A stretch of DNA of 64,000 bases from Chthoniobacterales bacterium (GCA_038207335.1 JBBQZX010000004.1:64001-128000), one strand, 5' to 3'. Shown: positions 4,000 through 56,793, counted from the stretch's first letter. Notes: generated by a model from the letters alone, not told the origin. Made by a program: numbers and translations.

Positions 4000-4003
<4 letters not shown>
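1664..4003 (-). CDS. Secreted leucine-rich-repeat protein (two blocks of 21-aa LRRs)
   Basis: GTG at 4003 overlaps the kinase stop (GTGA); signal peptide MKARLASLLLALSALSARA; repeats such as DLRPLAGLPLRSLILDDTPVT. The ORF-track start at 5161 is over-extended. Confidence 0.85.
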
Positions 4004-6681
<2,678 letters not shown>

Positions 6682-6834
6682 TGCGGCGCAGACGCTAGGC
6701 CAACCCCCGATGCGTTGTCGAGTGGACGCCGGGCTTTTGCCGCTCGTCATTCATACGCGGTTTTCGCCGTAGCAGCAGTGCCCGGCTTTCCGCATCCTTT
6801 ACTCACTCCCCTGCCCTTCGTTACCCATCTCTAA

Positions 6835-9334: not shown

Positions 9335-10159
9335 ATGAAACACCTCTTTGCCAGCATCACCGCTGCAGCGCTCCTCAGCTCCCATCTCCTCGCCGCCGAC
9401 GCGTCGCCTGTGACGGGCGAACTCGAAAAGATCGTCCACGCGGTCCAGGCCAAAGCTCAGGCGGGCAAAAACGCCGAGGCCGATTACGCGGACGAGATCA
9501 AGCAATTCGACGCGCTGCTGGAGAAACACAAAGCCGAGAAGACCGACGCCACGGCCGAGATCCTCATGGCCGAGGCCGGCATGTATGCGCAGCTTTTCGA
9601 GGATCCTGAAAAAGCGAGTGCGCTTCTCCAGAAGCTCAAAAGCGACTATCCCGACACCACTCCCGGCAAGCGCGCCGACAGCCTCATCACCATGCTCGCG
9701 CAGCAGGCAGAGGCCACGAAAGTCCAGCGCGGACTCATGCCCGGCAAACCGTTCCCGGACTTCTCCGAGACCTCGCTCGACGGCAAGCCGCTCTCGCTCG
9801 CGTCCTACAAAGGCAAGGTCGTTCTCGTCGATTTCTGGGCGACATGGTGCGGCCCGTGCGTGGCCGAACTGCCCAATGTCCTCAAGGCCTACGAGAAATA
9901 TCACGACAAAGGATTCGAGATCGTCGGCATCAGCCTCGATCAGGAAAAAGACGCGCTGACCAAATTCACTGCCGACAAGAAAATGCCATGGCCGCAGTAT
10001 TTCGACGGGCAGGGCTGGAAGAACAAACTGGCTGGAAAATACGGGGTGAACAGCATTCCCGCGACCTACCTCCTCAATAAGGACGGCGTCATCATCGGGA
10101 AAAATTTCCGCGGTCCGGCGCTCGATGAGGCTCTCGAGAAGGCACTCGGCACGAAGTAG
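9335..10159 (+). CDS. Exported TlpA/ResA-type thiol:disulfide oxidoreductase
   Basis: Signal peptide; KGKVVLVDFWATWCGPC; YGVNSIPATYL. Confidence 0.9.
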   Translation: MKHLFASITAAALLSSHLLAADASPVTGELEKIVHAVQAKAQAGKNAEADYADEIKQFDALLEKHKAEKTDATAEILMAEAGMYAQLFEDPEKASALLQKLKSDYPDTTPGKRADSLITMLAQQAEATKVQRGLMPGKPFPDFSETSLDGKPLSLASYKGKVVLVDFWATWCGPCVAELPNVLKAYEKYHDKGFEIVGISLDQEKDALTKFTADKKMPWPQYFDGQGWKNKLAGKYGVNSIPATYLLNKDGVIIGKNFRGPALDEALEKALGTK

Positions 10160-10199
10160 AGCGTGCTATCGGAGCGCGCTCGGATAGGCTCCGCCGTTC

Positions 10200-11504
10200 A
10201 TGCCATTTCGCACGCTGGGCCTCGGGCCCAATTTAATCAAAGCCGTCCAGGAATCCGGCTACACCGAACCGACGCCGATCCAGACCGAGGCCATTCCGCT
10301 CATCCTGCAGAATCACGACCTCATCGGAATCGCGCAGACCGGCACCGGAAAAACAGCGGCATTCGTGCTGCCGATCCTGACGAAAATCGGCGAGATGATC
10401 GCCACGCCCGGCAACCGTCGCTGCATCCGTGCGCTCGTCGTTGCGCCCACGCGCGAGCTCGTCGTGCAGATCGAGGAAAATGTGCGCGCCTACGCGAAAC
10501 ATGTACCGATCAAAGTCGCGACGGTTTTCGGCGGCGTCGGCGAACGGCCACAGATCGAGGCGCTACGCGCTGGCGTGGATATCGTAGTCGCCACGCCGGG
10601 CCGGCTGATCGATTTGATCCGTCATGCGCGCTTCGACGGGCTCGCATTTCTCGTCCTCGATGAAGCGGACCGGATGCTCGACATGGGCTTCCTCCCGCCG
10701 ATTCGTCAGATCGTGAAGGCGCTGCCCGTGAAGCGCCAGACGCTGCTCTTCTCCGCAACGCTCTCGAAAGAGATCGAAGGCCTCACGCACGAATTTTTGC
10801 GTTCGCCGAAAAAGGTGGAAATCGGCCGCCGCTCGAATCCCGCGGAGACCGTCGCGCAATTCGTGTACGAGGTGCCGAAGCACCTGAAGCCCGCGCTGCT
10901 CGCGCATCTGCTGCGCGATCCGAGCCTAGATACCGTCCTCGTTTTCACCCGTACGAAACACGGCGCCGACCGAGTCGCGCGAAAGCTCGAAAGCTGCAAA
11001 ATCACCACCGCCACGCTCCACTCGAATCGCTCGCAAAACCAGCGTCTGCGGGCATTGCGCGACTTCAAGTCTGGCGCGGTGCGCGTGCTCGTCGCAACCG
11101 ACATCGCCGCGCGCGGCATCGACGTGGACGGCATTTCTCACGTCGTAAATTACGACTTCCCCATGCACTGCGAAGACTACGTGCATCGCATCGGCCGCAC
11201 GGGCCGTGCGAAAGCCGTGGGCGACGCGATCAGCTTCGTGACTAGTGAAGATCACGCCTCGCTGCGCACGCTCGAGCGATTCATCGGTCGAGGCATCGTT
11301 CGAAAACGCGCGGATGATTTCGACTACGCGAGCGCCGCTCCGCCGATGGAGCCGCAAGGCGAACGCCGCCACATCCCAGGCCGGACCGGCGCAAACGACC
11401 GCAACCGCCCGCCGCGCGGAGGCGCGCCCCGCCCTGGTGGCGACCGGCGCGGTGGAGGGTCGGTCGGCCGAGGTGGCCGCAGCGGCGGCAGTGGTCGCCA
11501 CTGA
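10200..11504 (+). CDS. DEAD-box RNA helicase (RhlE-like)
   Basis: Q motif PTPIQ, AQTGTGKT, PTREL, TPGRL, DEAD, SAT, ARGID, HRIGRTGR, RGG-rich tail. Confidence 0.95.
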   Translation: MPFRTLGLGPNLIKAVQESGYTEPTPIQTEAIPLILQNHDLIGIAQTGTGKTAAFVLPILTKIGEMIATPGNRRCIRALVVAPTRELVVQIEENVRAYAKHVPIKVATVFGGVGERPQIEALRAGVDIVVATPGRLIDLIRHARFDGLAFLVLDEADRMLDMGFLPPIRQIVKALPVKRQTLLFSATLSKEIEGLTHEFLRSPKKVEIGRRSNPAETVAQFVYEVPKHLKPALLAHLLRDPSLDTVLVFTRTKHGADRVARKLESCKITTATLHSNRSQNQRLRALRDFKSGAVRVLVATDIAARGIDVDGISHVVNYDFPMHCEDYVHRIGRTGRAKAVGDAISFVTSEDHASLRTLERFIGRGIVRKRADDFDYASAAPPMEPQGERRHIPGRTGANDRNRPPRGGAPRPGGDRRGGGSVGRGGRSGGSGRH

Positions 11505-11687: not shown

Positions 11688-13313
11688 TTACTTCTTCGTC
11701 TCGACTAGCACTGTCGCCGCCGCGGGGGCGTGGAATGCGTGGCACGCCTGGCAGTCGCTCTTCACCCCGCCGGTGCGCCTTTGCGCAGCGGCGAGTTCGT
11801 GAGTCTCGGGTGCGAGCACGGCTTTCAGTTTCAGCGTGTCCACGGTCGCATCCACCTTCTCGTGCTCACGCGGGCGGTGGCACTCGGCGCAAATCTTCTG
11901 CGGCGGCATCAGGATGTCGCTCGTCAGTTTGCTCGTCTGCGCCGCGCCGTGGCAGTCGATGCAACTCATATGCTGGTGCGGTACATGCGTGAACGGCCCG
12001 TGCTGAATCCAGCGATCCGTCACTTTTACGGGCGCAATCGAAGGCGCGTTATTCGCGTTGCCGGGCCCGACGGTGTGACACTTCGCGCACTCCGTGAGAA
12101 ATTTTCGCGTTGCACGTTTCGTCAGCAGGTCGCCTTCATCGCCGCTCGGATCGCCGGTGAAAAACACGCGCTGCTCAAGATCATTGATCGTGTTCAAGCC
12201 CCGCTGTTGGAGCTTCTCCAATTCGCGCGTCGTCTGCCGGTCGAGGTCCACCGGATCGCTCACACCATCCGCGCGGAGCGCCTCGGCGAATGACAGCTTC
12301 AAGCTCGCGAGAAAGTACCGCACCTTCTGCGGATCACCGTGCGGAATCAGCACCTTCGGCAGACTAGGTTGAATCTGCAGCGTGTGGCACGGTTGGCAGC
12401 TTTGCTCGTAGGTGACCCGCTGATAAAACGTCCCACCCGCACCCGGCTTGTGACAGTCCGTGCAGGTCATTTTCCGCCCGTTGATCTTCGGCAAATCGCC
12501 TCGCTCGTGTCGCGCATGATTGAATTTCAGGGTGCCCGGATCGCGCAGATTGGGAGTCTCGTATTCAAATGGCGGATGCCCCTCGACATAGCTCGCGAAC
12601 GGCTTAAGCGCGGGCGTCGTCGGAGTGATGTAGTGCAGCAGCCCGTCCCCGAGATCGCGCGATTCGCCGACCGCGGCGATGGGCGGATTGTCCAACTTAA
12701 GCATCTGATGGGTACTCTCGAGCCGTTCGGCGTTGTTATGGCAGGCGGCACACGTCTGGCTCGAGGGGAGGGCCATGCGTTCGTGGCCGACATGCTCGCG
12801 GTGACAGAGCGCACAATTCGTCGCATGAACGACCGACAATTCGCTTCGCACTGTGCGCAGCGCCAACCCGGCGGACTGTGGTTGGTGCAGCCCCATCGCG
12901 CCGTGGCATTTCAGGCACGCCTGATCCATGAGCGAGAGCGACGTGAGCGCGAGCCCCTTTTCCACGATGCCCGCGTCGTTGCTTTTGGGCGTGAAGGCGA
13001 CTGGCTCTACCCCGCCTGCGTTCTCGCCGGATTTGTGCGATTTCAGCAGCGCGAGCACGTCGGGATCGGCACCGATGTGGCAGACGCGGCAGTCATTCGC
13101 GATGCGCGAGTGGTTCTCAGAGATTGGTCCGGTGGTGAGAAAATCCGACTTTCCCCAAAACCGAAAGCTAAGCACACCGACAATGCTAACCACCGCGACG
13201 ACGAGAAAGGCCCAGGCCCGTGCGTTCCGCAGGTAGTGCCCTTTTTTGAAGTAATCGAGATTCCCCTTATACTTCTCGGCGATCTGCTTTTGCGTGAATT
13301 TCTGGCCTGCCAT
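11688..13313 (-). CDS. Membrane-anchored decaheme c-type cytochrome (cytochrome c3-like family)
   Basis: N-terminal TM helix; ten CxxCH motifs: CRVCH, CLKCH, CALCH, CAACH, CTDCH, CQPCH, CAKCH, CIDCH, CAECH, CQACH. Confidence 0.9.
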   Translation of the reverse strand: MAGQKFTQKQIAEKYKGNLDYFKKGHYLRNARAWAFLVVAVVSIVGVLSFRFWGKSDFLTTGPISENHSRIANDCRVCHIGADPDVLALLKSHKSGENAGGVEPVAFTPKSNDAGIVEKGLALTSLSLMDQACLKCHGAMGLHQPQSAGLALRTVRSELSVVHATNCALCHREHVGHERMALPSSQTCAACHNNAERLESTHQMLKLDNPPIAAVGESRDLGDGLLHYITPTTPALKPFASYVEGHPPFEYETPNLRDPGTLKFNHARHERGDLPKINGRKMTCTDCHKPGAGGTFYQRVTYEQSCQPCHTLQIQPSLPKVLIPHGDPQKVRYFLASLKLSFAEALRADGVSDPVDLDRQTTRELEKLQQRGLNTINDLEQRVFFTGDPSGDEGDLLTKRATRKFLTECAKCHTVGPGNANNAPSIAPVKVTDRWIQHGPFTHVPHQHMSCIDCHGAAQTSKLTSDILMPPQKICAECHRPREHEKVDATVDTLKLKAVLAPETHELAAAQRRTGGVKSDCQACHAFHAPAAATVLVETKK

Positions 13314-13325
13314 GTCGCTTGAAAA

Positions 13326-14315
13326 TTACGGCTGCGGGAGGATGACGAGGTATCGGACAGCCACCCAAGCGTGCCATGCGGTGAAGATCAGTAGTGCGAA
13401 TGACGTGGGCACATGGACGATGAGCCACCCGTGAAGCCAGTGGTGAAACTTCAGCTGCAAGTCGAGAAGACGCCGGTCATCGCACCATTTTTGCATCTCG
13501 GAAATCTTCGGCTCCCATTCGTCCGCAATGTTCAGTTTGAGCAGGCGAAACATGTCGCCAGCTGTCCGCGCATCGCCGAGACGATGCCGGTCGCCGCGCT
13601 TCGCGTAGAGATACGGGAGGCATTCGTCGTCGAGAAATTCGCCGAAGATTTGCAACGAGGGATCTTCGACCGCCACCGCAGGAATGGCTTCGGTGCTTGA
13701 TCCCGGGACGGTTTTTTCCGCCGCGACCGCGGCTGGCTCGGGCTTTTCTCTCGCCGCCTTTTCGAGGTCGGTGATTTCTTTCCTCAGCTTCAGTGAAGCC
13801 TCGAAGAGAAGCCCACGGATGTGCGGCACCTGCTCAAAAACGACCTCACGCGGGAGCCGTTCTTTCATCAGCCGCGGCATGAACTGCTGCAGCGCGAGGC
13901 CAAAAAAACCGCTAACCATGACGATGCCGTAGAGCACGAGCAGCCATGAAGTGTGTGGCCCGCCGGTGCGGAAGCCACAGTGAAACAGCACGAGAGGCAC
14001 CGTAAAAAGCGTGAGCCAGATGTGCGCTCTGAGCCAAAACTGCACGCTTCCGATGCGCCAGAGCCGCTTCTTTTTCCGAATGCCGAGTGCTGAGGCGAAG
14101 AGAAAAATCAGAAACGCGATGCTGCCAAAAACGAGGCCGAGCGGCGTGCCGCCGAATGTATTTCGAAGTGGTGGGACCTCACCGAAAAATGCGGGAAGCG
14201 TGAGGTCGAACGGTAGGCGCTGCGGGAAGAAATTCGCGATGTAAAGCACCGCCGAGCCAATCGTGGCCAGAACGACAAAGATGAGCCAGGGGGTATGGGA
14301 GCGGTCGATTCTCAT
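13326..14315 (-). CDS. Polytopic membrane protein, putative di-heme b (ferric-reductase-like) subunit
   Basis: About 5 TM helices; two helices each carry H-x13-H (WLRAHIWLTLFTVPLVLFH; WLIVHVPTSFALLIFTAWH). Start at ATG 14315. Confidence 0.7.
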   Translation of the reverse strand: MRIDRSHTPWLIFVVLATIGSAVLYIANFFPQRLPFDLTLPAFFGEVPPLRNTFGGTPLGLVFGSIAFLIFLFASALGIRKKKRLWRIGSVQFWLRAHIWLTLFTVPLVLFHCGFRTGGPHTSWLLVLYGIVMVSGFFGLALQQFMPRLMKERLPREVVFEQVPHIRGLLFEASLKLRKEITDLEKAAREKPEPAAVAAEKTVPGSSTEAIPAVAVEDPSLQIFGEFLDDECLPYLYAKRGDRHRLGDARTAGDMFRLLKLNIADEWEPKISEMQKWCDDRRLLDLQLKFHHWLHGWLIVHVPTSFALLIFTAWHAWVAVRYLVILPQP

Positions 14316-14328
14316 GCGGCAAAAATAC

Positions 14329-16368
14329 TCAGTGGGTCGTGCGATCCACCGGTTTGTCCAGCCAGCGCACGCGGCGTTTTCCGAGCGCGGCACGTCCGAT
14401 TTGGCGCGCGAGAAATTCGGTGGGATCGACGCGCTTCGCCGCGTCGTGCGGGCACGCATACACGCAACTCGGCACGCTCAATTCCGTGCACAGATCGCAG
14501 GTCGTGGCTTTCTGCACCGACACGAGTTTGCGCTCCATTTTCTTCGGCGCAGCAGGCGCGGCGGGCGGCTTGGCAGCAGCGGGCGCAGCGGGTTTAGCGG
14601 CTGGTGGCTTGGCTTCGGCAACTGCGGTGGCGGGCGCGGCTTTCGGGTCGCCGACAGAAACGGCAGGCTCAGCCGCAACCGGGGCCGCAGGCACCGCAGT
14701 CTCGGATTTTTTCTCTGGCTCCACGACAGCGGCAGGTGCGGGCGATGGAACGGGCGCGCTCTTTTCCACTGGAGCCGAAGCCGCGGGAATTGGCTTGTCT
14801 GCTGGCTTCGCGGTCGGTTTCGCAGCTGCGGGCTTTGCGGCCGCTGCGGGCTTTTTCTCGACCACAGGCACATCCTTCATCATCTCGAAAGCGTGCATGT
14901 TGATGTTCCCGTACGGACACAACTCCGCGCATTTGCTGCAGCCGATGCACCAGTCTTCAATGATGATTTCGAGGCTCTCCTTTCGCCGGATCGAGCCGAC
15001 AGGGCATTGCGTCATGCAGAGCGGGTCGCGGCACGAGCGGCACGCAGTCGCGACGAGGAAGCGGTCGTAGCGCAGCCCGTCGCGCAGGAGGCGCGTGACG
15101 CCATCGTGCGCGTCGGCGCAGGCGTTCACGCACGCGTCGCAGCGGGTGCAGTTATCGAGGTCGATGAGCAGGAGATTTTGCGCCTCGAAAAGCCCCTGGT
15201 CGATGAACTCGTCGAGTTGCAAAGCCATCGGCATTTTTCCCGCCTGGTCCGCCTTGACGCGCGCCGATGCAATCTGCTCCAGCGTCGCACGCACGATCGG
15301 AAATTTGTCGAGCATGGTCTGGAAATCATCGCGCCCGATTTTCACGAGATCGACGACGTCGAGCGCCGAGCAGGTCGCGTTTCGCGGGCTGTCATTCAGC
15401 AGCCCGATTTCGCCGAAAAATTCGCCACGTTTGAGATAGGTGCGGACGAGTTCGTCCTCGACGGCATTGCCATCGGGCGTGAGCCAGAACTCTTTTCCGT
15501 TCGCCTTGTCTGTGAGGTAGGTGCGCTGCACGCCCGGAACGAGTGGCATTTTCTGCGAGACGCGCACGAGACCGGTGCGGATGAGATAAAACGCATCGGC
15601 GGGCGCGCCCTGTCGGCAGATGACCTGCCCTTTTCCAAATGAAACGAGTTCCGCCTTGTCCTTGATGTAATTGAAAAACTGCAAGTCGAGCGTTGCGAAA
15701 ATCGGGACGCTCCGAAGATGGCTCACGAGCGAACGCTCGCGATAAGTGTCGTCGATCTGCTTTTTGAACGAGGTGCCTTTGAAAGTCGGCGCCTTCACTT
15801 TCGTCGTCGCCTTCGTCTTCGGATCCACGTCCCGCGTGCCGATCAGCATGTCGAGGATCACGCGCAGCATCTCGACGATCACGCAGTCCTCGGTGGCGCG
15901 CACCGTGGCGGAGCGCGGCTGGAAAGTGCGGCACGTCATTTCACCCAAAAGCTCGCCCGGCCCGAGCAAAGCGATGGGCGTAGTGCGCGGCAGGTCGATC
16001 GACGCATCGATCGGGATGAAACCACGCGCCGCGACATCCGCAGCTTCCAACTGCGTCGTGACGAGTGAACTCGTCATGCGACTCATGAAGGAAAAAAGCC
16101 CCCCAAGTTTCGGCTTAGTCGAGAGATGAGCGAGCGGGTTGTTGATGTAAATTTCGACCTGTCCCTCGACCAAATAAAACGCGGTCGATCCGAAATCACC
16201 CTCTTCGCAGATGATGTCGCCGTATTTGAAAGTGCGTTTCACGGCAGCTCCGAGCGCATACTGTTTGAGGAGTGTCGCAGGCACCTCCTTCAGCGCCGGG
16301 AGCAGCTTTAGCATCTCCTCCACGCTCAGTGGCTCGCCGGTCGTGAGCTTTTCGGGAATTTCGTCCAT
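14329..16368 (-). CDS. Tandem cyclic-nucleotide-binding domains + DmsB/NrfC-type 4x[4Fe-4S] ferredoxin
   Basis: cNMP cassettes LLGEMTCRTFQPRSATV and FFGEIGLLNDSPRNATC; Cys groups CTRCDACVNAC, CRSCRDPLCMTQCP, CIGCSKCAELCP, CDLCTELSVPSCVYACP. Confidence 0.9.
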   Translation of the reverse strand: MDEIPEKLTTGEPLSVEEMLKLLPALKEVPATLLKQYALGAAVKRTFKYGDIICEEGDFGSTAFYLVEGQVEIYINNPLAHLSTKPKLGGLFSFMSRMTSSLVTTQLEAADVAARGFIPIDASIDLPRTTPIALLGPGELLGEMTCRTFQPRSATVRATEDCVIVEMLRVILDMLIGTRDVDPKTKATTKVKAPTFKGTSFKKQIDDTYRERSLVSHLRSVPIFATLDLQFFNYIKDKAELVSFGKGQVICRQGAPADAFYLIRTGLVRVSQKMPLVPGVQRTYLTDKANGKEFWLTPDGNAVEDELVRTYLKRGEFFGEIGLLNDSPRNATCSALDVVDLVKIGRDDFQTMLDKFPIVRATLEQIASARVKADQAGKMPMALQLDEFIDQGLFEAQNLLLIDLDNCTRCDACVNACADAHDGVTRLLRDGLRYDRFLVATACRSCRDPLCMTQCPVGSIRRKESLEIIIEDWCIGCSKCAELCPYGNINMHAFEMMKDVPVVEKKPAAAAKPAAAKPTAKPADKPIPAASAPVEKSAPVPSPAPAAVVEPEKKSETAVPAAPVAAEPAVSVGDPKAAPATAVAEAKPPAAKPAAPAAAKPPAAPAAPKKMERKLVSVQKATTCDLCTELSVPSCVYACPHDAAKRVDPTEFLARQIGRAALGKRRVRWLDKPVDRTTH

Positions 16369-16512
16369 GAGCTTTTTCGGAGCGAAAGCATTAGCTGCTC
16401 AGCGGCCCGCACGCCAAGAGCGAAAGCACCCCGGATTGCATCTTGCCCATTTTCTTAAAGGGCCTGTTTTCCGCAATCGACTTTTGTCCCGGCATTCGCT
16501 ACATCGCGCTCT

Positions 16513-17643
16513 GTGGCACACCCGAAATACTCTTGGATACTCATCGCAGCCTCGGCAGTCGGAACGCTGCTCACCACCACGCGCGCGGCGGACGACGCAA
16601 AAATCGCCAATCTTAAATTCGTCGGCGCGCAATCGTGCGCCTCCACGAGTTGCCACGGCGGTGGCATCGGAAAAGATCAGGCTGTCATTTATTATAAGAA
16701 GGATCAGCACGCACTCGCTTACGGGCTCGTCGCGAAAGGCACATCGATGCGCATGGCGGAGTCGCTCGGCATCACCGATCCAGTCAAAAGCGCACGCTGC
16801 AACGTCTGTCACTCGCCAATGCAGGGCGTACCGGAAAATCGTTTGGTAAAAGATTTGCACGCAGACAAAGGCGTGAGCTGCGAAGCGTGCCACGGCGCGG
16901 CGGATCTCTGGCTCCGTTTCCACACGCGACCCGACGTGACCTACCAGCAGACGGTCGCCGCCGGAATGCGCGACCTGAACGACCTCACCGTCCGCGCAAG
17001 CACCTGCGTCGCGTGCCACCTCAATATCGACGAAGACATCCGCAAATCCGGACATCCCGAACTTCATTTCGAACTCGACGGACAGACCATCGCCCAGCCG
17101 CCCCACTACCGTGACGAGCGGCCGTCGATTGGCCTTCGCTCATGGCTCACAGGCCAGGCGACCGCTCTCCGCGAGATCAGTTGGAAGCTCGCAAGCAAAC
17201 CCGAACCCGAACTTGAAGCACGCTGGAAAGGGCTCGTCTGGCTGCTGGAAAAAACCGCCGCAGGAAAGAACGCACTGCCTGAGAGCGGTGGATTCGCCGC
17301 GATGCAATCCGCCGCCGACCAGCTCGCCCATACTGCCGCGAAAGCCTTGTGGACGAAGGAATCCACGACCAAGCAACTCCGTGACTACATCTCTTCCAGT
17401 CCTGAGTTTACCGACGCGAAGGCGGATAAAATCGAGATGAGGCGCCGGGCTGAAGTGCTAATCCCATCGATCGAGCGGCTCTGGATCGCGCTGAAGAAGG
17501 AAGGTGGCGTGGACCCGGTCACATTCGAGCCCGCTCTCACCGTCGCCAGCGATCTTGCGCGCGAGCAGGCGGACTTTGATCCGGTGAAATTTGGCCGCGC
17601 GCTCGAACAGATCGAGGTGGCATTCGAGCGGATGCAGAAGTAA
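16513..17643 (+). CDS. Exported tetraheme c-type cytochrome (cytochrome c554-like) with helical C-terminal domain
   Basis: Signal peptide; CASTSCH (Cx4CH), CNVCH, CEACH, CVACH. Confidence 0.85.
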   Translation: MAHPKYSWILIAASAVGTLLTTTRAADDAKIANLKFVGAQSCASTSCHGGGIGKDQAVIYYKKDQHALAYGLVAKGTSMRMAESLGITDPVKSARCNVCHSPMQGVPENRLVKDLHADKGVSCEACHGAADLWLRFHTRPDVTYQQTVAAGMRDLNDLTVRASTCVACHLNIDEDIRKSGHPELHFELDGQTIAQPPHYRDERPSIGLRSWLTGQATALREISWKLASKPEPELEARWKGLVWLLEKTAAGKNALPESGGFAAMQSAADQLAHTAAKALWTKESTTKQLRDYISSSPEFTDAKADKIEMRRRAEVLIPSIERLWIALKKEGGVDPVTFEPALTVASDLAREQADFDPVKFGRALEQIEVAFERMQK

Positions 17644-17655
17644 AGCGGCGCGGCG

Positions 17656-18606
17656 TTGCGTCTCGCCTCGAACGCGGGCAACTTTCGCCCCGTTTTGCAA
17701 ACCGAGCCCGCGCCCCAGCTCTTCGATTCAGCGTTTCTCGCGAAGCTCGAGCAGCTCTACCTCGTCTCGAAAAAGCTCTTTCGCGGCGACCATCGCGCGG
17801 AGCGAAAATCGCGGCAACTCGGCTCCAGCCTCGAATTCGCCGACTACCGAAACTACACCGCCGGCGACGACCTCCGCAGCATCGACTGGAATATCTACGG
17901 CCGCCTCGACCGTCTGTTCATCAAGCTCTTCGAGCAGGAGCAGGACCTCCACATTTACTTCCTCATCGACGCCTCCGCCTCGATGCGCTGGGCCTCCCCC
18001 GACCCCCGGCTATCGACCAAACTCGACGCCGCGCTCCGCATCTGCGCTTCGCTCGCCTACATCGGCCTCGCGAATCTCGACCGCGTGAACATCCACTGGT
18101 TCGCCTCAGCACTGCACGGTGACCTCGGCCTCTCGCGTGGAAAATCGCAGTTTCACAAAGTTCTCGAATTCCTCCGGCGCGCGCCCGAGCTGCCCGGCGA
18201 AACCAGCCTCCTCGCGAGCATCCGCGGCTTCGTGCATCGCACAAAACGTCGTGGCCTCGTCTTCCTCCTGAGCGATCTTTTCGACCCGGCCGGCCACGAG
18301 GAAGCACTCGCGTTCCTGCGCCACAGCCAGTTTGAAGTCCACGTCATCCAAATCCTCGACCCCGCGGAAATTCGCCCGACCGCCAGCGGCGACCTGCGCC
18401 TCATCGAAAGTGAAACCGGCGCGGCATTCGAAGTCACCGCGACCGACGCGCTCCTGCGCCGATATCACGCGGAAATCGACGCTTTCCTCGACGGCATCGC
18501 CGCCTTTTGCCTCCGCCGCGGCATCAATTACGCCCGCGCCTCCAGCGCCGTGAATTTCGAGGAACTCGTGCTGCGCGTGCTGCGAGACGGGAGGCTTGTG
18601 GGATGA
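17656..18606 (+). CDS. DUF58 / VWA protein (MoxR-operon associated)
   Basis: GSSLEFADYRNYTAGDDLRSIDWN signature; MIDAS-like DASAS; alternative TTG start at 17695. Confidence 0.9.
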   Translation: MRLASNAGNFRPVLQTEPAPQLFDSAFLAKLEQLYLVSKKLFRGDHRAERKSRQLGSSLEFADYRNYTAGDDLRSIDWNIYGRLDRLFIKLFEQEQDLHIYFLIDASASMRWASPDPRLSTKLDAALRICASLAYIGLANLDRVNIHWFASALHGDLGLSRGKSQFHKVLEFLRRAPELPGETSLLASIRGFVHRTKRRGLVFLLSDLFDPAGHEEALAFLRHSQFEVHVIQILDPAEIRPTASGDLRLIESETGAAFEVTATDALLRRYHAEIDAFLDGIAAFCLRRGINYARASSAVNFEELVLRVLRDGRLVG

Positions 18607-18613
18607 AACGAAG

Positions 18614-20482
18614 ATGACATTTCTTGCTCCTTGGGCCGCATGGTTCGCCGCCGGCCTGCCCGTCATCGTCCTGCTCTATTTGCTGAAGCTAAAGCGGCGT
18701 CCGCTCACCGTTTCCACGCTCGTGTTCTGGCAGCGCGTGTTGCAGGAAAGTCGCCGCCGCGCGCTTTTCCAGCGGCTCCGAAATCTTCTGTCGCTGCTCC
18801 TGCATCTGCTCATTTTCCTGCTCATCCTCTGCGCTCTCGCCAAGCCGACATTCGACCATTTCGTGGCGACCGGTTCGAGCACCGTGATCGTCCTCGACAC
18901 CCGCGCGCGGATGCAGGCGCTCGACCCGGACGGCGTCTCTCGTTTCGAAAAAGCGCGCCTGCTTGCCGCGCGATATTTGCGCGATGCCAGCACCAGCCAC
19001 CAGCTCGCGATCCTGACTACTGGCTCATCTCCAGCCGTCTCCTCCCCTTTCACCGGCGACGAAAAAGCGCTACGTGAATCGCTCACCCGGGTTTCTGTCA
19101 GCGACCTTGCCGGAGAAATCGAACCCGCGATCCACCTCGCCGAGCAGCTCCTCGCATCGCGAAATGGCGAAGCCCAAATCGTCGTCATCAGCCCCTCGGG
19201 ATGCAAAATTCAAAATTCAAAATTCAAAATTCTCCCCGTCTCCGTGGGCTCTCCGCGCGACAACGTCGCGATCACGCGCTTCGCCACTCGACCGCTGCTG
19301 AGCGACCCGGAGACTAGCGAGGTACTGCTTGAAATTCGCAACTTCGGCACGAGCGCGTCGCGCGGAAATGTCGAACTCGCGCTCGACGGAAAACTGCTCG
19401 ACGTGAAGCCCTTCGACCTCGAGCCCGGCGGGCGCAGCTTCGAGACATTTTCCGCACTTCCCCGCTCCGCTCGCAACGCCCGCGGCTGGCTCACCGCGCG
19501 CCTTCCGACTCCCGACGCGCTCGCGCTCGACAACGTCGCATACGCCGTCCTGTCAGCACCGCAGCAGCATCGCGTGCTGCTAGTCACGCGCGGAAATTTC
19601 TTCCTTGAGAAGCTCCTCGCCGCCGACCGCCAAATCTCGTTCGAGTTGCTCGAGCCCGACGCATTTCAGCTCCCGATGGCGGCGAAATTCGACGCCGTGA
19701 TCCTCGATGACGCGCTCCCCCCGGGCTTTGACCTCGCGCAGACCGAGGGCAATTTTCTGTTCCTAAAAACGTCGCCTTTCACCACGCCCGGAGAGCCAAT
19801 CCAGCAGCCGCTCGTGAGCGACATCGACGCCGCAAATCCGGTGCTGCGCCTCGTGACGCTGCAAAACGTCACGATCGTCCGAGCCGCGCCCATGCAGCTT
19901 CCCGGCGCGATGCCCGGGTGGAAATTCAGCGCGCCGCTACGGTCATTCGAGCATCCACTGATGGCCACCGGCAGCGAACTCACTGGCTCTCATCGCACCG
20001 CCGCGCTCGCATTCGACCTCGCCGATTCCGACCTCCCGCTGCGCATCGCGTTCCCGCTGCTGATTACGAATACCGTGCATTGGCTCGCGGGAGCGGAAAG
20101 GGCCACGCCAATTAGTTTGCAGACGGGCGACGTGGTGCCGCTGGCACAGAATCAGACGGTCTGGATAGAGCCACAAACCGAGCCCACCGCGCCCGCAAAA
20201 CCAGACGCAAAGCAACTCGCACGGCAATTCTTCGAACCAACGCGCGATGGCTTCTATCGGCTAGACCAACCCGGCGGCTCAAGCTGGATCGCGGTCAACA
20301 CCTTCAGCGAAGGAGAGTCCGACCTGAGCGCCGCGTCGCCCGCATCGCTTAACGCCGCACCCGTTTCCCGCCAGTCGCTCGCGAATCTCGCCACGCGTCC
20401 GCTCTGGCAATACCTCGCCCTCGCCGCCCTCGCGCTGACGACGCTGGAGTGGTGGCTCTTCCACCGGAGGCGCACGGAATGA
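18614..20482 (+). CDS. BatA-domain / VWA membrane protein
   Basis: N-terminal MTFLAPW...PVIVLLYLLKLKRR...STL BatA motif; degenerate VWA (DTRARM); C-terminal TM ending LEWWLFHRR. Confidence 0.85.
   Translation: MTFLAPWAAWFAAGLPVIVLLYLLKLKRRPLTVSTLVFWQRVLQESRRRALFQRLRNLLSLLLHLLIFLLILCALAKPTFDHFVATGSSTVIVLDTRARMQALDPDGVSRFEKARLLAARYLRDASTSHQLAILTTGSSPAVSSPFTGDEKALRESLTRVSVSDLAGEIEPAIHLAEQLLASRNGEAQIVVISPSGCKIQNSKFKILPVSVGSPRDNVAITRFATRPLLSDPETSEVLLEIRNFGTSASRGNVELALDGKLLDVKPFDLEPGGRSFETFSALPRSARNARGWLTARLPTPDALALDNVAYAVLSAPQQHRVLLVTRGNFFLEKLLAADRQISFELLEPDAFQLPMAAKFDAVILDDALPPGFDLAQTEGNFLFLKTSPFTTPGEPIQQPLVSDIDAANPVLRLVTLQNVTIVRAAPMQLPGAMPGWKFSAPLRSFEHPLMATGSELTGSHRTAALAFDLADSDLPLRIAFPLLITNTVHWLAGAERATPISLQTGDVVPLAQNQTVWIEPQTEPTAPAKPDAKQLARQFFEPTRDGFYRLDQPGGSSWIAVNTFSEGESDLSAASPASLNAAPVSRQSLANLATRPLWQYLALAALALTTLEWWLFHRRRTE
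19204..19231 (+). repeat. Heptanucleotide tandem repeat (CAAAATT)x4 inside the BatA CDS
   Basis: Read directly from the sequence; encodes CKIQNSKFKIL. Confidence 0.95.
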
Positions 20483-20519
20483 ACGCGCTCCACTTAATAA
20501 ACAGACTCGTGCGCCTCCC

Positions 20520-23117
20520 ATGCTTGAACTGACGCACCCGCTTTTTCTGCTGCTCGCGCTTGCGGTGCTGCTGCTTGCGCTCGCGTTGCGACGGTCGCTG
20601 GCGGACCTCACGCCGGTGCAGCGGCGCGTCTGCTTCGCGGTGCGGACATTGCTCGTGCTGCTGCTCGTCGCCGCGCTGGCGGGAGTGCGAATGCTGCTCC
20701 CGTCGGAAGACCTCGCGGTGATTTTTGCAGTCGATGAATCGGCGAGCATCTCGCCGGAAGCGGAGAAGCAGGCGCGCGATTTCGTCGCCGCAAGTCTCAC
20801 AAAGCAGCGGGCACGCGACACGAGCGGAGTTGTCGGATTTGCGCGCAGCACGGAGTTACGGCAACCGGCGAGCGAGAATGCGCGGCTGGCGGCGGAGTGG
20901 GCGCCGCCCGCAGATCGAGCGTGGACGGACATCGGCGGGGCGCTGGACTTTTCCAGCGCGGTTTTTCCCGCGGAGAAAACGCAGCGGCTCGTGCTGCTCA
21001 GCGATGGCAACGACACGGGCGGACGCGCCGCGCAATCGGCTCAAATGCTTGCTTCGCGGGGCATCGAGCTTTTCACCGCGCCGCTGCGAAACGCCGCGAC
21101 GCCGGAGGTGCTCGTGGAAAAAGTGGAGGTGCCGCGGCGGTTGAAGACCGGTGAGCCGTTCGATCTCGTGGCGAATATCCGCAGCAACATCGCAACGAGC
21201 GCGAAGGTGAAACTTTACCAAAATCAATTCCTGCTCGAGACGCGCGAGGTGGAGTTGAAACCGGGAGACAATGAATTTCGCGCGCCGAATTTGAAGGCGG
21301 ACGGGAGCTTTATTTCATACGAAGTCGAGGTCGCGGCGGTGCGCGACACGGCGATCGAAAACAACCGGGCGCAAGCAACTGCTAGCCTTCGCGGGCAGCC
21401 GCGCGTGCTGATCGTGGAGGGCGACGATGGCAAGGCGCGTCCGCTCACGGAGGCACTACGAGGCGAGAAAATCGGTGTCGAAACGCGCGGGGCGTCCGGC
21501 GCGCCGAAGACGCTGGAGGATTTGCAGCAGTTCGATCTTTTCATACTGAGCAATGTCTCGGCGCTGGCGCTGGGCCGCGAGCAGATGGAGCTGTATCGCC
21601 GATGGGTCCAGGATTTCGGCGGCGGCTTTGTGATGCTCGGGGGCGAGAACAGCTTCGGAGTCGGCGGCTATTTTCGCACGCCGATCGAGCAGATGCTGCC
21701 AGTGCGAATGGAGCACGATGACCGGCAGGATATGCCGAGCGTGGCGCTGCTCGTGGTGCTGGATCGCTCAGGCTCGATGTCGGCGCTGGCGCAGGGACAG
21801 ACAAAGATTTCGCTCGCAAATCAGGGCGCGGTGCTCGCGATGAATGTGCTGCAGCCGCGCGATTATTTTGGCGTGCTCGCGGTGGACACCCGCGTGCATA
21901 CGGTTGCGCCTCTGCAGCAACACGCGTCGAAAGCGCCGATCGAGCAAAAGATTCTCACGGTTACGGCGGCGGGCGGCGGCATCTATATTTACACCTCGCT
22001 CGCGGAGGCGTTCGCGCAGCTCCGCGATGTGCCGGCGCGGATCAAGCACGTCATCCTTTTTTCCGACGCGACGGATGCCGAGGAAAAGAGTGCAGGTGAG
22101 ATGGGCGACGGAGCGTCGGGAGCGGGCTCGGCGCTCGATTTGGCGTCGGCGATGCTGACGGCGAAGATCACGACGTCGGTGGTCGCGCTCGGGCTTGAAG
22201 CAGACAAGGACACGCCATTTCTGAGGCAGCTCGCGGAACGCGGAAGCGGGCGATTTTACCTGACGAGCGACGCGACGAGTCTGCCGCAGATTTTCAGCAC
22301 TGAGACGATGAAAGTGGCGCAGTCGAGCCTCGTGGAGGAGCCATTCCTCGCGATAGCGACGAGCAAGAGCCCAGTGATCGCTGGGCTCGACTGGGCGCAG
22401 TCGCCGCTGCTGCTCGGCTACAACGCGACGAAGCCGAAACCGACCGCAGACGTGCTGCTCGCGACAGAACGTGGCGAGCCGCTGCTGGCGAGCTGGCGAT
22501 ACGGGCTCGGGCAGGCGGCGGCCTTCACTAGCGATGCGAAAAGTCGGTGGGCCGCCGAGTGGCTTGCGTGGCCGGGATACGGGAAATTTTGGACGCAGCT
22601 CGTGCGCGGGCTCATGCGGAAAAGCGATCAGTCGAGCTTCGCGGTGAGCACGAGTGAAATGGCGGATCGGCTGACGCTGAAGATCGACGCGATGAAGCCG
22701 GACGGGGCGTTTCGCGATCGGCTCCCGATCACGGTCAATGCGCGAAATCCGAGTGGCGAGACGCAGAAGGTGGAGGCGCGGCAGACCGCGCCAGGCGAGT
22801 ATTCGGCGGCGTTCGATCTGCCAAGTGAGGGGACGACGATCGTCTCGGTGACTTCCCCGGAATTGCCCGATGGCGGATACGTCTTCGGCCACACGCGGAG
22901 CTACCCGCGGGAGTTTTTGAGCAGTGAAACGAACGATGATTTTTTGAGATCGCTGGCAGAAGCGGCGGGAGGGAAATTCAATCCGACGGCTGAAGATATC
23001 TACGCGCGCCCTGCGCATCCTTCGCTACGGAAGCGCGATCTTACCGACTACTTCCTAATGGCCGCATTGGTGATTTTCCCGATCGATATCTGGCTGCGAC
23101 GCCGCACATGGAAGTAA
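20520..23117 (+). CDS. Double-VWA membrane protein with GATase-like central domain
   Basis: MIDAS motifs DESAS and DRSGS; GGGFVMLGGENSFGVGGY GATase-like segment; N- and C-terminal TM helices. Confidence 0.85.
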   Translation: MLELTHPLFLLLALAVLLLALALRRSLADLTPVQRRVCFAVRTLLVLLLVAALAGVRMLLPSEDLAVIFAVDESASISPEAEKQARDFVAASLTKQRARDTSGVVGFARSTELRQPASENARLAAEWAPPADRAWTDIGGALDFSSAVFPAEKTQRLVLLSDGNDTGGRAAQSAQMLASRGIELFTAPLRNAATPEVLVEKVEVPRRLKTGEPFDLVANIRSNIATSAKVKLYQNQFLLETREVELKPGDNEFRAPNLKADGSFISYEVEVAAVRDTAIENNRAQATASLRGQPRVLIVEGDDGKARPLTEALRGEKIGVETRGASGAPKTLEDLQQFDLFILSNVSALALGREQMELYRRWVQDFGGGFVMLGGENSFGVGGYFRTPIEQMLPVRMEHDDRQDMPSVALLVVLDRSGSMSALAQGQTKISLANQGAVLAMNVLQPRDYFGVLAVDTRVHTVAPLQQHASKAPIEQKILTVTAAGGGIYIYTSLAEAFAQLRDVPARIKHVILFSDATDAEEKSAGEMGDGASGAGSALDLASAMLTAKITTSVVALGLEADKDTPFLRQLAERGSGRFYLTSDATSLPQIFSTETMKVAQSSLVEEPFLAIATSKSPVIAGLDWAQSPLLLGYNATKPKPTADVLLATERGEPLLASWRYGLGQAAAFTSDAKSRWAAEWLAWPGYGKFWTQLVRGLMRKSDQSSFAVSTSEMADRLTLKIDAMKPDGAFRDRLPITVNARNPSGETQKVEARQTAPGEYSAAFDLPSEGTTIVSVTSPELPDGGYVFGHTRSYPREFLSSETNDDFLRSLAEAAGGKFNPTAEDIYARPAHPSLRKRDLTDYFLMAALVIFPIDIWLRRRTWK

Positions 23118-42641: not shown

Positions 42642-45600
42642 TTATTTTTGAATGGTGAAGTCGGGGGACGTGACGAGCAGATGGACGACTCCGCGGACGC
42701 GGTCGCGGATTAGATCGGGGAAGCCGCCGACGATGTTCGCGACGGCATTCGTGTAGTTCACGCCGGTGCTGTTCGTGCGCGTCACGGGCACGAGGAAGGT
42801 GTTCGTCGTCGGGTTCACGATCGCGAACGTGCCGTTGATCGAGGGATTGAAACTGCCGCCGGTCACACCGGAGATGGTGACGGTTTGGCCATTGGGAAGT
42901 CCGTGCGCATTTGCCGTGACGGTAGTGAATCCGTTGAGGCTCACGATCGGGCGCGAATTGCCCCCGGAGGTCGCGGTCGCGCTTGTGAGTGTCGCGGCTG
43001 CGTTCGAGCAACTGACCGGGATCGTGAACGTATTAGTGCCAGTGGCGGTGAGAATGAAAGTGCCAATGATCGTGGGTGAAAATGTGCCCCCGCTGACGCC
43101 CGCGATAGTGACATTTTGCCCCGTCGTGAAGCCGTGATTATTTACGGTCAGGCTCGTGAGCGTGGCGCTGCCGAGGCTCGTGATCGCCTTGCCGTACGGG
43201 AGCGAAGATTGCACGTAGCTTTGCACCACGACCTTCGCCGCGGACGGGAGCTGCCCGGCGAGCAAACGCGTGTTCATCTTATCGATGAACGCGCCGAGAT
43301 TCGTGTCGTGAACCCACGGCAATCCGCCCGGCCCCGCACCCATCCACGGCCGCAGATCGACCATGATGTCGCGCCCGCCACTCTTGAAACTCGCGAGACC
43401 TTTCTGCCCGAGCGCGTCGTTGAAAATCCCGTTGTAGAGGAAATTCACCTGCCGGATGACGTTCGTATCCGACGTGAGCTGGAACTCCGGCGTGACGAGC
43501 CCCTCCTGCGAGAGCACGCCGGGATATTGGTAGTCGGGAAGGTAGAAGTTGAACACGGTCGGCGAACGAAGCGGCGTCTGCGCAAGATCGGTGTCGGTGG
43601 TGCCGACATTCCAATCGCTGTAGGTCACCGCCATCGGACCCGAGCGCGTGGCGGCGTCACTCGCGAGGCAAAGATTTCCGGTGCCACTCGTGGTCGGCAG
43701 CACATTCACCGGAAGCACGGCGAATACCGTGCCACTGCGCGAGACGTTTGCGTCCGAGACGTTCACGGTGAAGGTGTTTGCGGTCGGCGCGGGCACGGCC
43801 GCGACCGTGTAGTCGCCGCTCGTCGGCGTCGCCGCAGAGCTGCTGACAAAATCGAGCCGCACCGTCGCACCCGCCGCGAAGCCGTGAGCGGTGCTCGTGA
43901 CGGTGAGCGTGGTGCCGCCCGTGCCGGACTGGCTGTAGGTCGCGGTCTTCGTATTCGGCCCAGCGAAAACGATCGTGTAAATGTCGCTGGACCGGAACGC
44001 GATTGTGCCAGCGCCATTCGCTAGCGCACCTGTCAGGGCTTCCATATAGATGCTGTTGCCGACGCTGAAGTTGAAGCCATTCGTCGGCTGCGTGAACGAG
44101 ATGATCCCGCCGCCCTGCGTGTAGGCAACCGCAGGCTCAAACGATTTTACTCGGGCCGTGAACTGCGTCGGTCCGATCACCGTGAGGCCGTAAGTCGCGT
44201 CTGCTGGCTGGCCGGCGGTGCCGGACGTGGCCGCCTCGAAATCGAGAAACGCCGAATTTCCATCCGCATAAAGGTGATCCGCGCCGGTCGTGACCGTAAT
44301 AAGGCTGCCCGTCTGCGAGTAGCTGCCTGTCACCGGTGGCGGGGCGGGAAACGCGCGCGCTACCGCGGTCGTGCGCAATACTGGTTCGCGCTGTTTTCCA
44401 TACCCCTGAAACGCTGCCGCGATCGGACTGCGCGCCTCGTAATCGAGCAGGATCGCCTTCATCACAGCCTTCATGTCGCCACGCACCCCACTGCCGTTGT
44501 CGTTGAACGCCGACACGACCCGATACAAATAGCCGCGGCTCGGCGTGCTCGTCACGAACCGCTGGATGAGTTGCCGGCAGATGAACGGCGCGCACGTCGG
44601 GTGATTGAAGAGCGCGTCGTGCGCTTTCCCGAGTTCGACTCGAGTGAGCGCCTGATACGCGGGGTCGTTGATCTGCGCCGTGCTATGCGAGCCATATGGA
44701 TCGAGCGCGACACCACCGATGTTCGGCAGGCCAGGCAGCACGACGTTATTCAAAATGCGCTTCTGCCCTGTGAAGTGATGCGACGGCACCTCGGTCATCG
44801 GGTTTAGGTAATTCGAGCTCGGCGACCAGTTGGTCGGCAGCGGCGTCGTCGGCGTCTGGTAGTAGTTCCAGCCGGTGAAAACGTGAGCCATTCCGGTCAC
44901 GCCATCCTGGTCGTAGGTCGGCACCGGCAGGCCTTTCGAGTTCAGCACGAGCGAGCCGTCTGGGTGCAGTTTGTTCAGCCCGATCGAGAAAAGCTGCATG
45001 ATCTCACGCGCGTAATTCTCGTTCGGAATGAGACCCTTCGCCTTGTCCGGCTTGTCGTTTTTCCGCATGTCCAGGAAAATCCCCATCATCGGGTGCAGGG
45101 TCACGTTTTGCAGGACCGAGCGGAAGTTGCCGAACGCGTCATCGAGGAACATGTCGTAGTAATCCGCATGTCCATTCGCCAAATCCTCGAGCACGCCGGA
45201 CGATGAAATCACCGCGATCTGGCTCAGCGCAAATGCCACCCGCTGCCGGAGTTGATCGGGCGCGGTGACGGAGTTCTTCCACCACGAATTGATCTCCAAA
45301 CTCGTGCTGTAAGTCGGGTTCCCGCCGTTCGTCGTATTGCGGCTGGCGAAGACATAGTCGTAGTGATGCGTCGCGGGCGTCGCGAATTGCGCGTCGATCC
45401 AACCGGCGTATCCGAGCGCCTGAACCGCTGCGATGTCATCCGGCGACGGGCCAAAAGTCGATTGAATCAGGAAGCGCGCGGCTGCGTTTGGATCAGTGTG
45501 ATCGTCGGTCCAATTCGGCGCGGCGGGGGGCGGCGTGAATGTCTGCGAGCCGGCCAGAAGCTGGTAGTAGCCCTTGATTTCCCCGCCGATGTAATTCTCC

Positions 45601-48125: not shown

Positions 48126-48278
48126 GGCGGGAGAAACCAATGATCGAGCTTAGGCCGTACCACGACCTTCCTTCTATCTGAGCGAAGTTCGCACCGTCCA
48201 CACGCTATTACAATGTTGAAATCGAGGGCGTTCCCCGCTGCGATTTTTTTGGGATAACCAATCGGTTGCGAGGCGCTC

Positions 48279-56483: not shown

Positions 56484-56793
56484 AAAACGGGAGGGGGCAG
56501 ATACAAAGGGGGACACTCCCCCCCATCTAACATCACAATCCCCTCGTCTCATGCGGAATTTTACGAAATCACAATACAATCGTGACATTTGACGCCGAGC
56601 CAACCTGCCAACTCTCCCGCTCGAGGCGCTGCCGGCCACGGCTCAGGCGCGGCTCTCTCTCCCCGCGATCTGGACGCAAACAGCATCAAACTCTACTGAT
56701 GATCTCCCTACCCGAGCTGTGGCCCCAAAAGCCGGACTGCAAGCCCTCCACGTCCACACATTCGCTCGATCTCGGAAACCTCCTCGCCACCAC

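Follow-up and report, generated by a model that had tools for sequence, protein, structure and literature searches.

The stretch of DNA considered here, termed the window, comprises 64,000 nucleotides from a Chthoniobacterales bacterium (GCA_038207335.1 JBBQZX010000004.1:64001-128000; G000:C4:64001-128000, that is, contig C4 of genome G000 in our numbering), a genome with a completeness of 94.7%; by their names, close homologues suggest a place in the Chthoniobacteraceae. On its minus strand lie three co-oriented open reading frames (ORFs), A, B and C, separated by 13 bp (A-B) and 12 bp (B-C), and, divergently transcribed from A, a fourth gene, D (Table 1). Their products, an iron-sulphur (Fe-S) protein with cyclic nucleotide-binding (CNB) domains, a membrane protein, a decaheme cytochrome c and a tetraheme cytochrome, are discussed here as a candidate electron conduit across the cell envelope. 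An initial annotation of this DNA had described the three spaced genes as encoding a cytoplasmic protein with two intact cyclic nucleotide monophosphate (cNMP) cassettes and four DmsB/NrfC-type motifs, a membrane protein with two H-x13-H helices, and a cytochrome that is anchored by a transmembrane (TM) segment and carries exactly ten CxxCH motifs, and the ORF coordinates, the domain and motif analysis and a motif count all agree with that description. As a unit the three genes are not complete, as the divergent gene D was missed and three probable partners are encoded on other contigs.

Table 1. Features of the core locus (window positions) and of the unlinked genes (contig positions; survey locus in brackets).
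Feature	Position	Strand	Remarks
Gene A (PtdE-like, head-less)	16368-14329	-	679 aa; two CNB domains, four [4Fe-4S] Cys groups
CNB1 phosphate-binding cassette of A	15913..15945	-	G142-E143-x7-P151-R152
CNB2 phosphate-binding cassette of A	15382..15414	-	G319-E320-x7-P328-R329, intact here
DmsB/HycB-type four-cluster Fe-S domain of A	14452..15150	-	Cys 407-484 and 624-639
Gene B (PtdF / PCC4 inner membrane protein)	14315-13326	-	329 aa; five predicted TM helices
TM3 of B	13980..14024	-	Sequence motif H98-x13-H112, preceded by W94
TM5 of B	13371..13415	-	Sequence motif H301-x13-H315, preceded by W297
Gene C (PtdG-like), N-terminally anchored periplasmic decaheme cytochrome c	13313-11688	-	541 aa
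Gene D (PtdD-like), secreted tetraheme, cytochrome c554-like	16513-17643	+	One CxxxxCH, three CxxCH
A-D divergent intergenic region, presumed promoters	16369..16512	.	144 bp
LVIVD-repeat cytochrome	G000:C6:83497-87684 (L154)		~1300 aa; ten hemes
Probable beta-barrel	G000:C7:87151-89580 (L153)		Family of 650-850 aa
HbpS-like secreted protein	G000:C7:85382-87103 (L153)		Recurrent beside the core in relatives

The product of gene A has no hydrophobic segment and is cytoplasmic. Its two CNB domains (PF00027, E 2.5e-33) each hold the canonical G-E-x7-P-R cassette, and its 16 Cys fall into four DmsB/HycB-type groups (residues 407-417, 443-455, 474-484 and 624-639), the last two of which are separated by a Pro/Ala-rich stretch (~14533-14877). 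Among 69 aligned A proteins (27-89% overall identity) the four cassette residues of CNB1 are invariant and those of CNB2 are partly retained (Glu in 58, Arg in 57), while all 16 Cys align in 60, with Ser at one position in nine. Over residues 385-497 the 119 best matches other than the protein itself show 87-99% identity, and the NCBIfam matches of the Fe-S domain all lie far below cut-off. The N-terminus is without a NuoG-type, FHA or flavin domain, a form here called head-less; the ten head-less proteins, which come from two families, constitute a single clade (SH-aLRT 100) in a quick IQ-TREE tree of 66 of the 69 rows, from which three near-duplicates and the linker columns were excluded and in which three 'short' metagenome rows may have been cut at contig ends.

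In the predicted topology of B, a cytoplasmic helical domain is placed between TM4 and TM5. The four His of TM3 and TM5 are invariant in all 73 aligned homologues, and of 175 homologues 172 have two WX3HX13H motifs and 162 have the SGXXG motif (S135-G136-x-x-G139 here); the homologues number 1773 at 90% clustering and form 1751 clusters at 50% identity (E up to 0.001). It is very probable that B binds heme b, and the protein is probably a di-heme cytochrome b of the ferric-reductase type in which, judging by the predicted topology, the hemes would be held by H98/H301 and H112/H315. B shares with the ferric-reductase-domain cytochromes b (NOX, STEAP, MsrQ) and CybB the two H-x13-H helices at TM3 and TM5 and a weak Pfam and fold resemblance; unlike them, it has no fused FAD/NADPH domain, possesses a large cytoplasmic helical insert, and is partnered by a four-cluster Fe-S protein and a decaheme cytochrome. 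Gene B itself has no Pfam or NCBIfam match, and its homologues gave weak Ferric_reduct matches in 19 of 73 cases (E up to 0.1) and DUF4405 matches in 32 of 73. With the predicted structure (predicted local distance difference test score 93), a fold search returned CybB (Z 7.3, root-mean-square deviation 3.4 over 136 aligned residues), STEAP1 (Z 7.1) and SpNOX (Z 5.6), none of them ranking above unrelated helical bundles, and neither Foldseek (E up to 0.001) nor a profile search against solved structures yielded a match; a match to plasmids was likewise not found.

The decaheme cytochrome C is anchored by a single TM segment (34-52), and ten hemes are also found in 132 of the 140 complete cytochromes encoded directly downstream of B homologues; its profile gave weak matches at most against solved structures. 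The D family profile, built from 62 homologues in which the four heme sites are invariant, matches cytochrome c554 (1BVB, E 5.6e-21). The intergenic region between A and D showed no sigma-70 match and no promoter or terminator signal exceeding that of shuffled sequences, and six aligned copies have merely one short word in common.

The gene-neighbourhood survey that the initial annotation had called for covered 196 loci, of which 36 come from genomes of Verrucomicrobiota, 80 from metagenomes and a further 80 from named genomes, each of the latter two lists being the best 80 of about 600 matches. In 110 of the loci the sequence extends far enough to either side of B, and among these A lies directly upstream of B in 103, a cytochrome with at least seven hemes lies directly downstream in 107, and the full order A-B-multiheme is present in 100. 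This order, together with the invariant His of B, indicates that the triad is more than a chance association and supports the earlier notion of a conserved trans-membrane redox wire; a physical complex of A, B and C is likely. Gene D is present in 115 of the 196 loci. The named hosts of the core belong to the Verrucomicrobiota, Planctomycetota, Alpha- (marine) and Gammaproteobacteria, Nitrospinota, SAR324 and Acidobacteriota. Respiratory loops of the DmsABC, FdnGHI and NrfCD type likewise have a DmsB/HycB-type four-cluster Fe-S subunit beside a membrane subunit, but here that subunit is fused to CNB domains and there is no molybdopterin or hydrogenase subunit: as initially noted, such a catalytic subunit is missing from the locus, and in a set of 116 loci none belongs to the neighbour clusters that recur. 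Of the catalytic subunits specific to the ptd/PCC4 cluster, none was found elsewhere in the genome.

The initial annotation had also regarded the composition as lacking a described precedent, a view that can be discarded, as the core has been named twice from genomes, in 2017 as PCC4 (PMC5566968) and in 2023-24 as ptdEFG (bioRxiv 10.1101/2023.11.21.568154). The operon ptdABCDEFG is described as encoding a pentaheme cytochrome (PtdA), a porin (PtdB), an FAD/NAD(P) oxidoreductase (PtdC), a tetraheme cytochrome (PtdD), a cNMP-binding Fe-S protein (PtdE), a protein resembling ferric reductases (PtdF) and a ten-heme cytochrome (PtdG), with a function that its authors state to be unknown (bioRxiv 10.1101/2023.11.21.568154). 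In PCC4 subgroup II the inner membrane protein spans the membrane five times and carries SGXXG in TM4 and WX3HX13H in both TM3 and TM5; its gene is preceded by an Fe-S gene, and the cytochromes have four and ten hemes. PCC4 was found in genomes of Fe(II) oxidisers, and the membrane protein was read as quinone-active (PMC5566968). A literature search returned no biochemical test of the cluster, and the accessible text of the two naming papers contains none of the core. Membership was judged by these published descriptions, by motifs and by recovered full loci. B shows all three features of the PCC4 membrane protein, the cNMP-type Fe-S gene lies directly upstream, the decaheme gene lies downstream, and the tetraheme gene is present, albeit divergent. 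Moreover, full seven-gene loci in ptd order were recovered (L024, L158, L164, L173, L182, L198, L211, L221), with whose PtdE-position proteins A is homologous. D aligns with the PtdD-position proteins, and at L024 the proteins in the D, E, F and G positions match D, A, B and C of the window, the match of C to ptd-type decahemes being weak (30 bits to L024). The pentaheme of L024 has as its sole match the cytochrome c552 5ZE8, which probably corresponds to the PtdA homologue described in the ptd preprint.

From the shared motifs and the full loci it follows that A, B, C and D correspond to PtdE, PtdF, PtdG and PtdD. Searches of this genome by tblastn and profile found neither a pentaheme PtdA nor a PtdB/PCC4 porin, and for PtdC the best match had 23% identity (E 9e-7) and was not an orthologue; thus, on sequence comparison, the present system has the ptd/PCC4 core and should work in the same manner, yet is not a full member. 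Composition (D, A, B, C) and the order E-F-G agree with the ptd operon; what differs is the lack of detectable PtdA, PtdB and PtdC, the divergent D and a different outer module. In addition, A has four Cys groups where the ptd preprint gives two clusters for PtdE, and C is without the Cys-rich N-terminus of ptd-type decahemes (bioRxiv 10.1101/2023.11.21.568154). The motifs of the membrane protein, the upstream Fe-S gene and the four- and ten-heme cytochromes are shared with PCC4 subgroup II, from which the present system is set apart by having no pentaheme and no PCC4-type porin; the accessible text of that paper is silent on cNMP domains and proposes an inward flow to quinone (PMC5566968).

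The outer module in question consists of three genes of this genome that are unlinked to the triad, on contigs C6 and C7: an LVIVD-repeat cytochrome whose ten heme sites are conserved in 28 of 28 proteins, an HbpS-like secreted protein, and a probable outer-membrane beta-barrel, recognised as such by a C-terminal alternating hydrophobic strand with a terminal aromatic residue. Alginate_exp matches were obtained for 4 of 14 members of the barrel family, which also has a feature match of 0.95 to an alginate-export cluster; the profile search against solved structures gave no match for the barrel and weak matches at most for the LVIVD protein. Identification of the barrel as a PtdB homologue found no support (hhalign probability 0.4). 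At least one of the barrel, HbpS and LVIVD genes shares a locus with the core in 50 of the 196 loci, and in seven relatives they form one cluster; ptdA/ptdB occur in 42 loci, and the two sets are found together in none, a pattern of module swapping. Of the 29 relatives with a completeness of at least 90%, ten carry all three of B, the LVIVD decaheme and the barrel, and the other 19 carry not one of them. The barrel was found in 7 of 301 genomes of the phylum, all seven being among the 20 with a match to B. It therefore seems likely that the triad and the unlinked outer module are partners.

No description of the LVIVD/barrel/HbpS set was found in a literature search that included the accessible text of the Tenderiales preprint and the Limisphaera paper. 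A verrucomicrobial porin gene beside multiheme cytochromes, for which a role in the reduction of humics was proposed, has been reported from Opitutus, 'Ca. Udaeobacter' and bog metagenome-assembled genomes (MAGs) (PMC5615132). This arrangement resembles the outer module, but the periplasmic cytochrome of the published cluster has eight conserved hemes, as opposed to ten in the LVIVD protein, and on the published description the two are probably different. A search for the barrel in one MAG of unknown completeness, labelled Opitutus sp. GAS368, found none. A third type of outer module, an MtrB-type porin with a small cytochrome of 9-10 hemes, was observed beside a NuoEF-like gene and B-C (L104:1686-5027, and L096).

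The nature of D and of the barrel raises an alternative, namely that the system supplies reductant for periplasmic chemistry (nitrogen-oxide, heme or oxidative stress) rather than for respiration outside the cell, with the barrel moving a solute. D is c554-like, a heme protein of the HbpS type co-occurs, the barrel resembles alginate-export pores rather than MtrB, and a nitrogen-cycle role has been raised for ptd, ptdAB being transcribed in an oxygen-deficient zone (Elbon et al., bioRxiv 10.1101/2023.11.21.568154). Neither D nor the LVIVD protein, however, showed an identifiable catalytic signature, and the MtrB-type porin and small decaheme beside the core in at least one locus (L104) point to electron export; such a supply line is accordingly viewed as improbable.

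On the input side, flavoprotein modules linked to NAD(P)H stand beside the core in 112 of the 196 loci, including a NuoEF-like gene (together with a NuoG-type domain fused to A) in 34 and an FNR-2Fe2S protein (PtdC) in 78, the two never occurring together. Cluster-type NuoEF (64-100% identity) is present in 5 of 28 close genomes, and these five are exactly the genomes whose A is NuoG-fused and located apart from D-B-C. In the 12 genomes with A beside B, the present one included, matches to NuoEF were partial, at most 40% identical, or nil; completeness reaches at least 90% in seven of these, and a contig end truncates the start of A in one (G003). Congeners with orthologous B-C-D (B about 60-65% identical) carry the NuoEF-fed form of A. 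Three other candidate donors or partners in this genome were set aside: the NuoEF of contig C13 is part of the operon for complex I and has 33% identity with the cluster type; a second DmsB-like gene (C6:3652-5322) sits, on inspection of sequence starts, in an assimilatory-nitrate-like cluster; and a CysJ-like FAD/NAD(P) protein (G000:C21:83357-84544) is present in 38 of 41 relatives, although it adjoins the outer module in G037 and G334.

Several related arrangements were encountered in the survey. At L037:8137-11523, L038 and L039 a pyridine-nucleotide oxidoreductase with a BFD-type [2Fe-2S] domain is fused to a B-like domain and followed by a decaheme, a form that has no cNMP domains and reads as a single-chain route from NAD(P)H to the membrane. 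In L023, L035, L036 and L040 (~9400-11300) a protein of about 250 aa that distantly resembles B accompanies a 7-heme cytochrome and an adjacent FNR-2Fe2S gene, with no A, and appears to be a smaller sister system. A pyridine nucleotide-disulphide oxidoreductase recurs in a cluster spanning 15 loci (L084:2996-4402, L111:222-1628 and others); it reads like a soluble transhydrogenase.

Two further explanations bear directly on the input. Electrons might flow inward, such that the outer and the periplasmic cytochromes take electrons from a donor outside the cell (Fe(II) or reduced humics) and B delivers them to the quinone pool, with A as a regulator or side branch. This agrees with the published reading of PCC4 noted above, and with quinone as the sink a head-less form would need no NADH module. 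It sits poorly with the NAD(P)H-linked modules that accompany the core in over half of the loci surveyed, with the fact that reduction of NAD(P)+ from such donors is uphill, and with a host range most groups of which are not known as iron oxidisers; inward uptake thus appears unlikely, if the least unlikely of the alternatives. The head-less form could also be a decaying remnant that has lost its input module. The want of a donor and the scattering of the system over three contigs would fit, as would a frameshifted A in G008 and a split B in G007; but all motifs are intact, the Fe-S domain is as strongly conserved as stated, the head-less form extends across two families, and the partners are kept in every near-complete carrier, which makes decay highly implausible. 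The G008 gene lies in several frames at L041:7254-9518, and both this and the split B are possibly assembly errors.

The link of the system to cNMP, part of the original proposal for this locus, has gained support from the invariant CNB1 pocket and from the genomic company of the core. Class III cyclases with CHASE2, 7TMR-DISM or FHA architectures occur in 21 of the 196 loci. In a control based on the genome-wide cyclase density of the same genomes, counted for 50 of the 80 named loci, 12 of the 50 held a cyclase as against 1.7 expected, and over all 80 named loci the figures are 12 and 2.3. The pocket and the enrichment argue for real nucleotide binding, an argument that does not extend to gating; binding of a cNMP by A is fairly likely, and for gating of electron flow by the bound nucleotide the case is evenly balanced. 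No electron-transfer chain is known to be controlled directly and allosterically by a second messenger, and the literature search found none. In relatives, A, the decaheme or PtdC carries a fused FHA domain (L024, L061, L062, L188; Pfam matches for L024 and L061), hinting at an added Ser/Thr phospho-control.

These signalling features permit a view of the head-less clade as redox sensors, in which the heme chain would report the redox state of the periplasm or of the exterior to the Fe-S clusters of A, and the CNB domains would integrate cAMP or cGMP and signal to a partner. The ten head-less proteins form one clade with an extremely conserved Fe-S domain and no dedicated donor found, and both the FHA fusions and the nearby cyclases are of the kind that a sensor might have. 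Set against this, A has no output domain, some 24 c-hemes and a probable porin are retained, a costly outlay for sensing, and the congeners use a NuoEF-fed A with orthologous B-C-D. A sensor role is therefore considered improbable.

The explanation that we favour, somewhat more readily than not, is an envelope-spanning outward electron conduit with the core A-B-C, gated by cAMP or cGMP. A, B and C would form its inner-membrane part (PtdE-PtdF-PtdG): electrons would travel through the four [4Fe-4S] clusters of A, reach the heme b on the cytoplasmic side of B (H98/H301), move across the membrane to its outer heme b (H112/H315) and pass to the decaheme C, whereupon the c554-like D could ferry them through the periplasm to the separately encoded outer module of LVIVD cytochrome, probable barrel and HbpS-like protein. 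Binding of cAMP or cGMP at CNB1 would switch the flow. The ancestral direction would be from NAD(P)H to the outside, and an outward direction is reasonably probable. Since the lineage has no dedicated NADH module, the head-less A would most likely be fed by a shared cytoplasmic carrier, or else B would be fed by quinol and A would act as a switch. In a broader version, put forward tentatively, the system would be a modular whole-envelope conduit, switched by cAMP or cGMP at its Fe-S subunit, with exchangeable inputs (NuoEF, FNR, a fused flavoprotein or none) and outputs (pentaheme with PtdB, or LVIVD decaheme with alginate-export-like barrel and HbpS-like protein); in the soil/freshwater-type verrucomicrobial clade, where the NADH head is missing, it would be a quinol- or carrier-fed wire or a redox sensor.

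A number of observations weigh against the outward, cNMP-gated conduit. He et al. read the same core as an inward, quinone-linked uptake system (PMC5566968). Neither cluster-type NuoEF nor a PtdC orthologue was found in this genome, which leaves the head-less form without a donor, and the CysJ-like flavoprotein, being near-universal, is not a specific partner, even if it could serve as donor all the same. The best rows of the fold search with B were helical bundles (TorS, Z 9.6), and no cytochrome b stood out. As regards the outer module, the co-occurrence was counted among kin, 4 of 12 less complete relatives were discordant (G001, G008, G013, G022), and one of five genomes tested has ptdA/B in the core locus and the barrel elsewhere. 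With respect to gating, CNB2 is degenerate in ptd-type relatives, though intact here; the 12 cyclase loci reduce to about seven lineages, and the choice of 50 loci for the control took in every one of the 12; and in this genome some 15 kb separate the triad from the nearest cyclase.

Bacteria of soil, peat and the ocean, from many different phyla, carry the core, and no tested function was assigned to it in the literature found. To what was already known, a core named twice from genomes, the present analysis adds the divergently oriented ptdD, a matched pattern of NADH-module presence and absence, a second, co-occurring outer module, and an enrichment of cyclases measured against a control. 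If cAMP or cGMP gates the conduit, electron export could be switched within seconds by a second messenger without any change in gene expression. The system offers convenient handles: one invariant pocket can be mutated (E143, R152), the neighbouring cyclases may be the origin of the signal, and within a single genus there are natural pairs that differ in having or lacking the NADH module. With the second outer module, extracellular electron transfer would come to include abundant hosts among the Chthoniobacterales and of the Acidobacteria type.

Other genes of the window and the genome deserve brief mention. Genes of the DUF58, BatA-VWA and VWA/GATase1-like types start 12 bp past D (17656-23117, plus strand) and are not recurrent neighbours at the other surveyed loci. 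An FHA-Ser/Thr kinase-FGE-sulfatase protein is encoded at 4000-6750 (minus strand) and an FHA-cyclase just left of the window (G000:C4:59440-60318; L152:7441-8319), neither with a demonstrated link to the triad, and two very long ORFs of 1832 and 2786 aa occupy 42642-56639 (minus strand). Finally, two pentaheme genes elsewhere in the genome (G000:C7:114107-117991 and C1:276140-279705) each adjoin a large Fe-S-containing gene and, by inspection, probably represent alternative complex III clusters.

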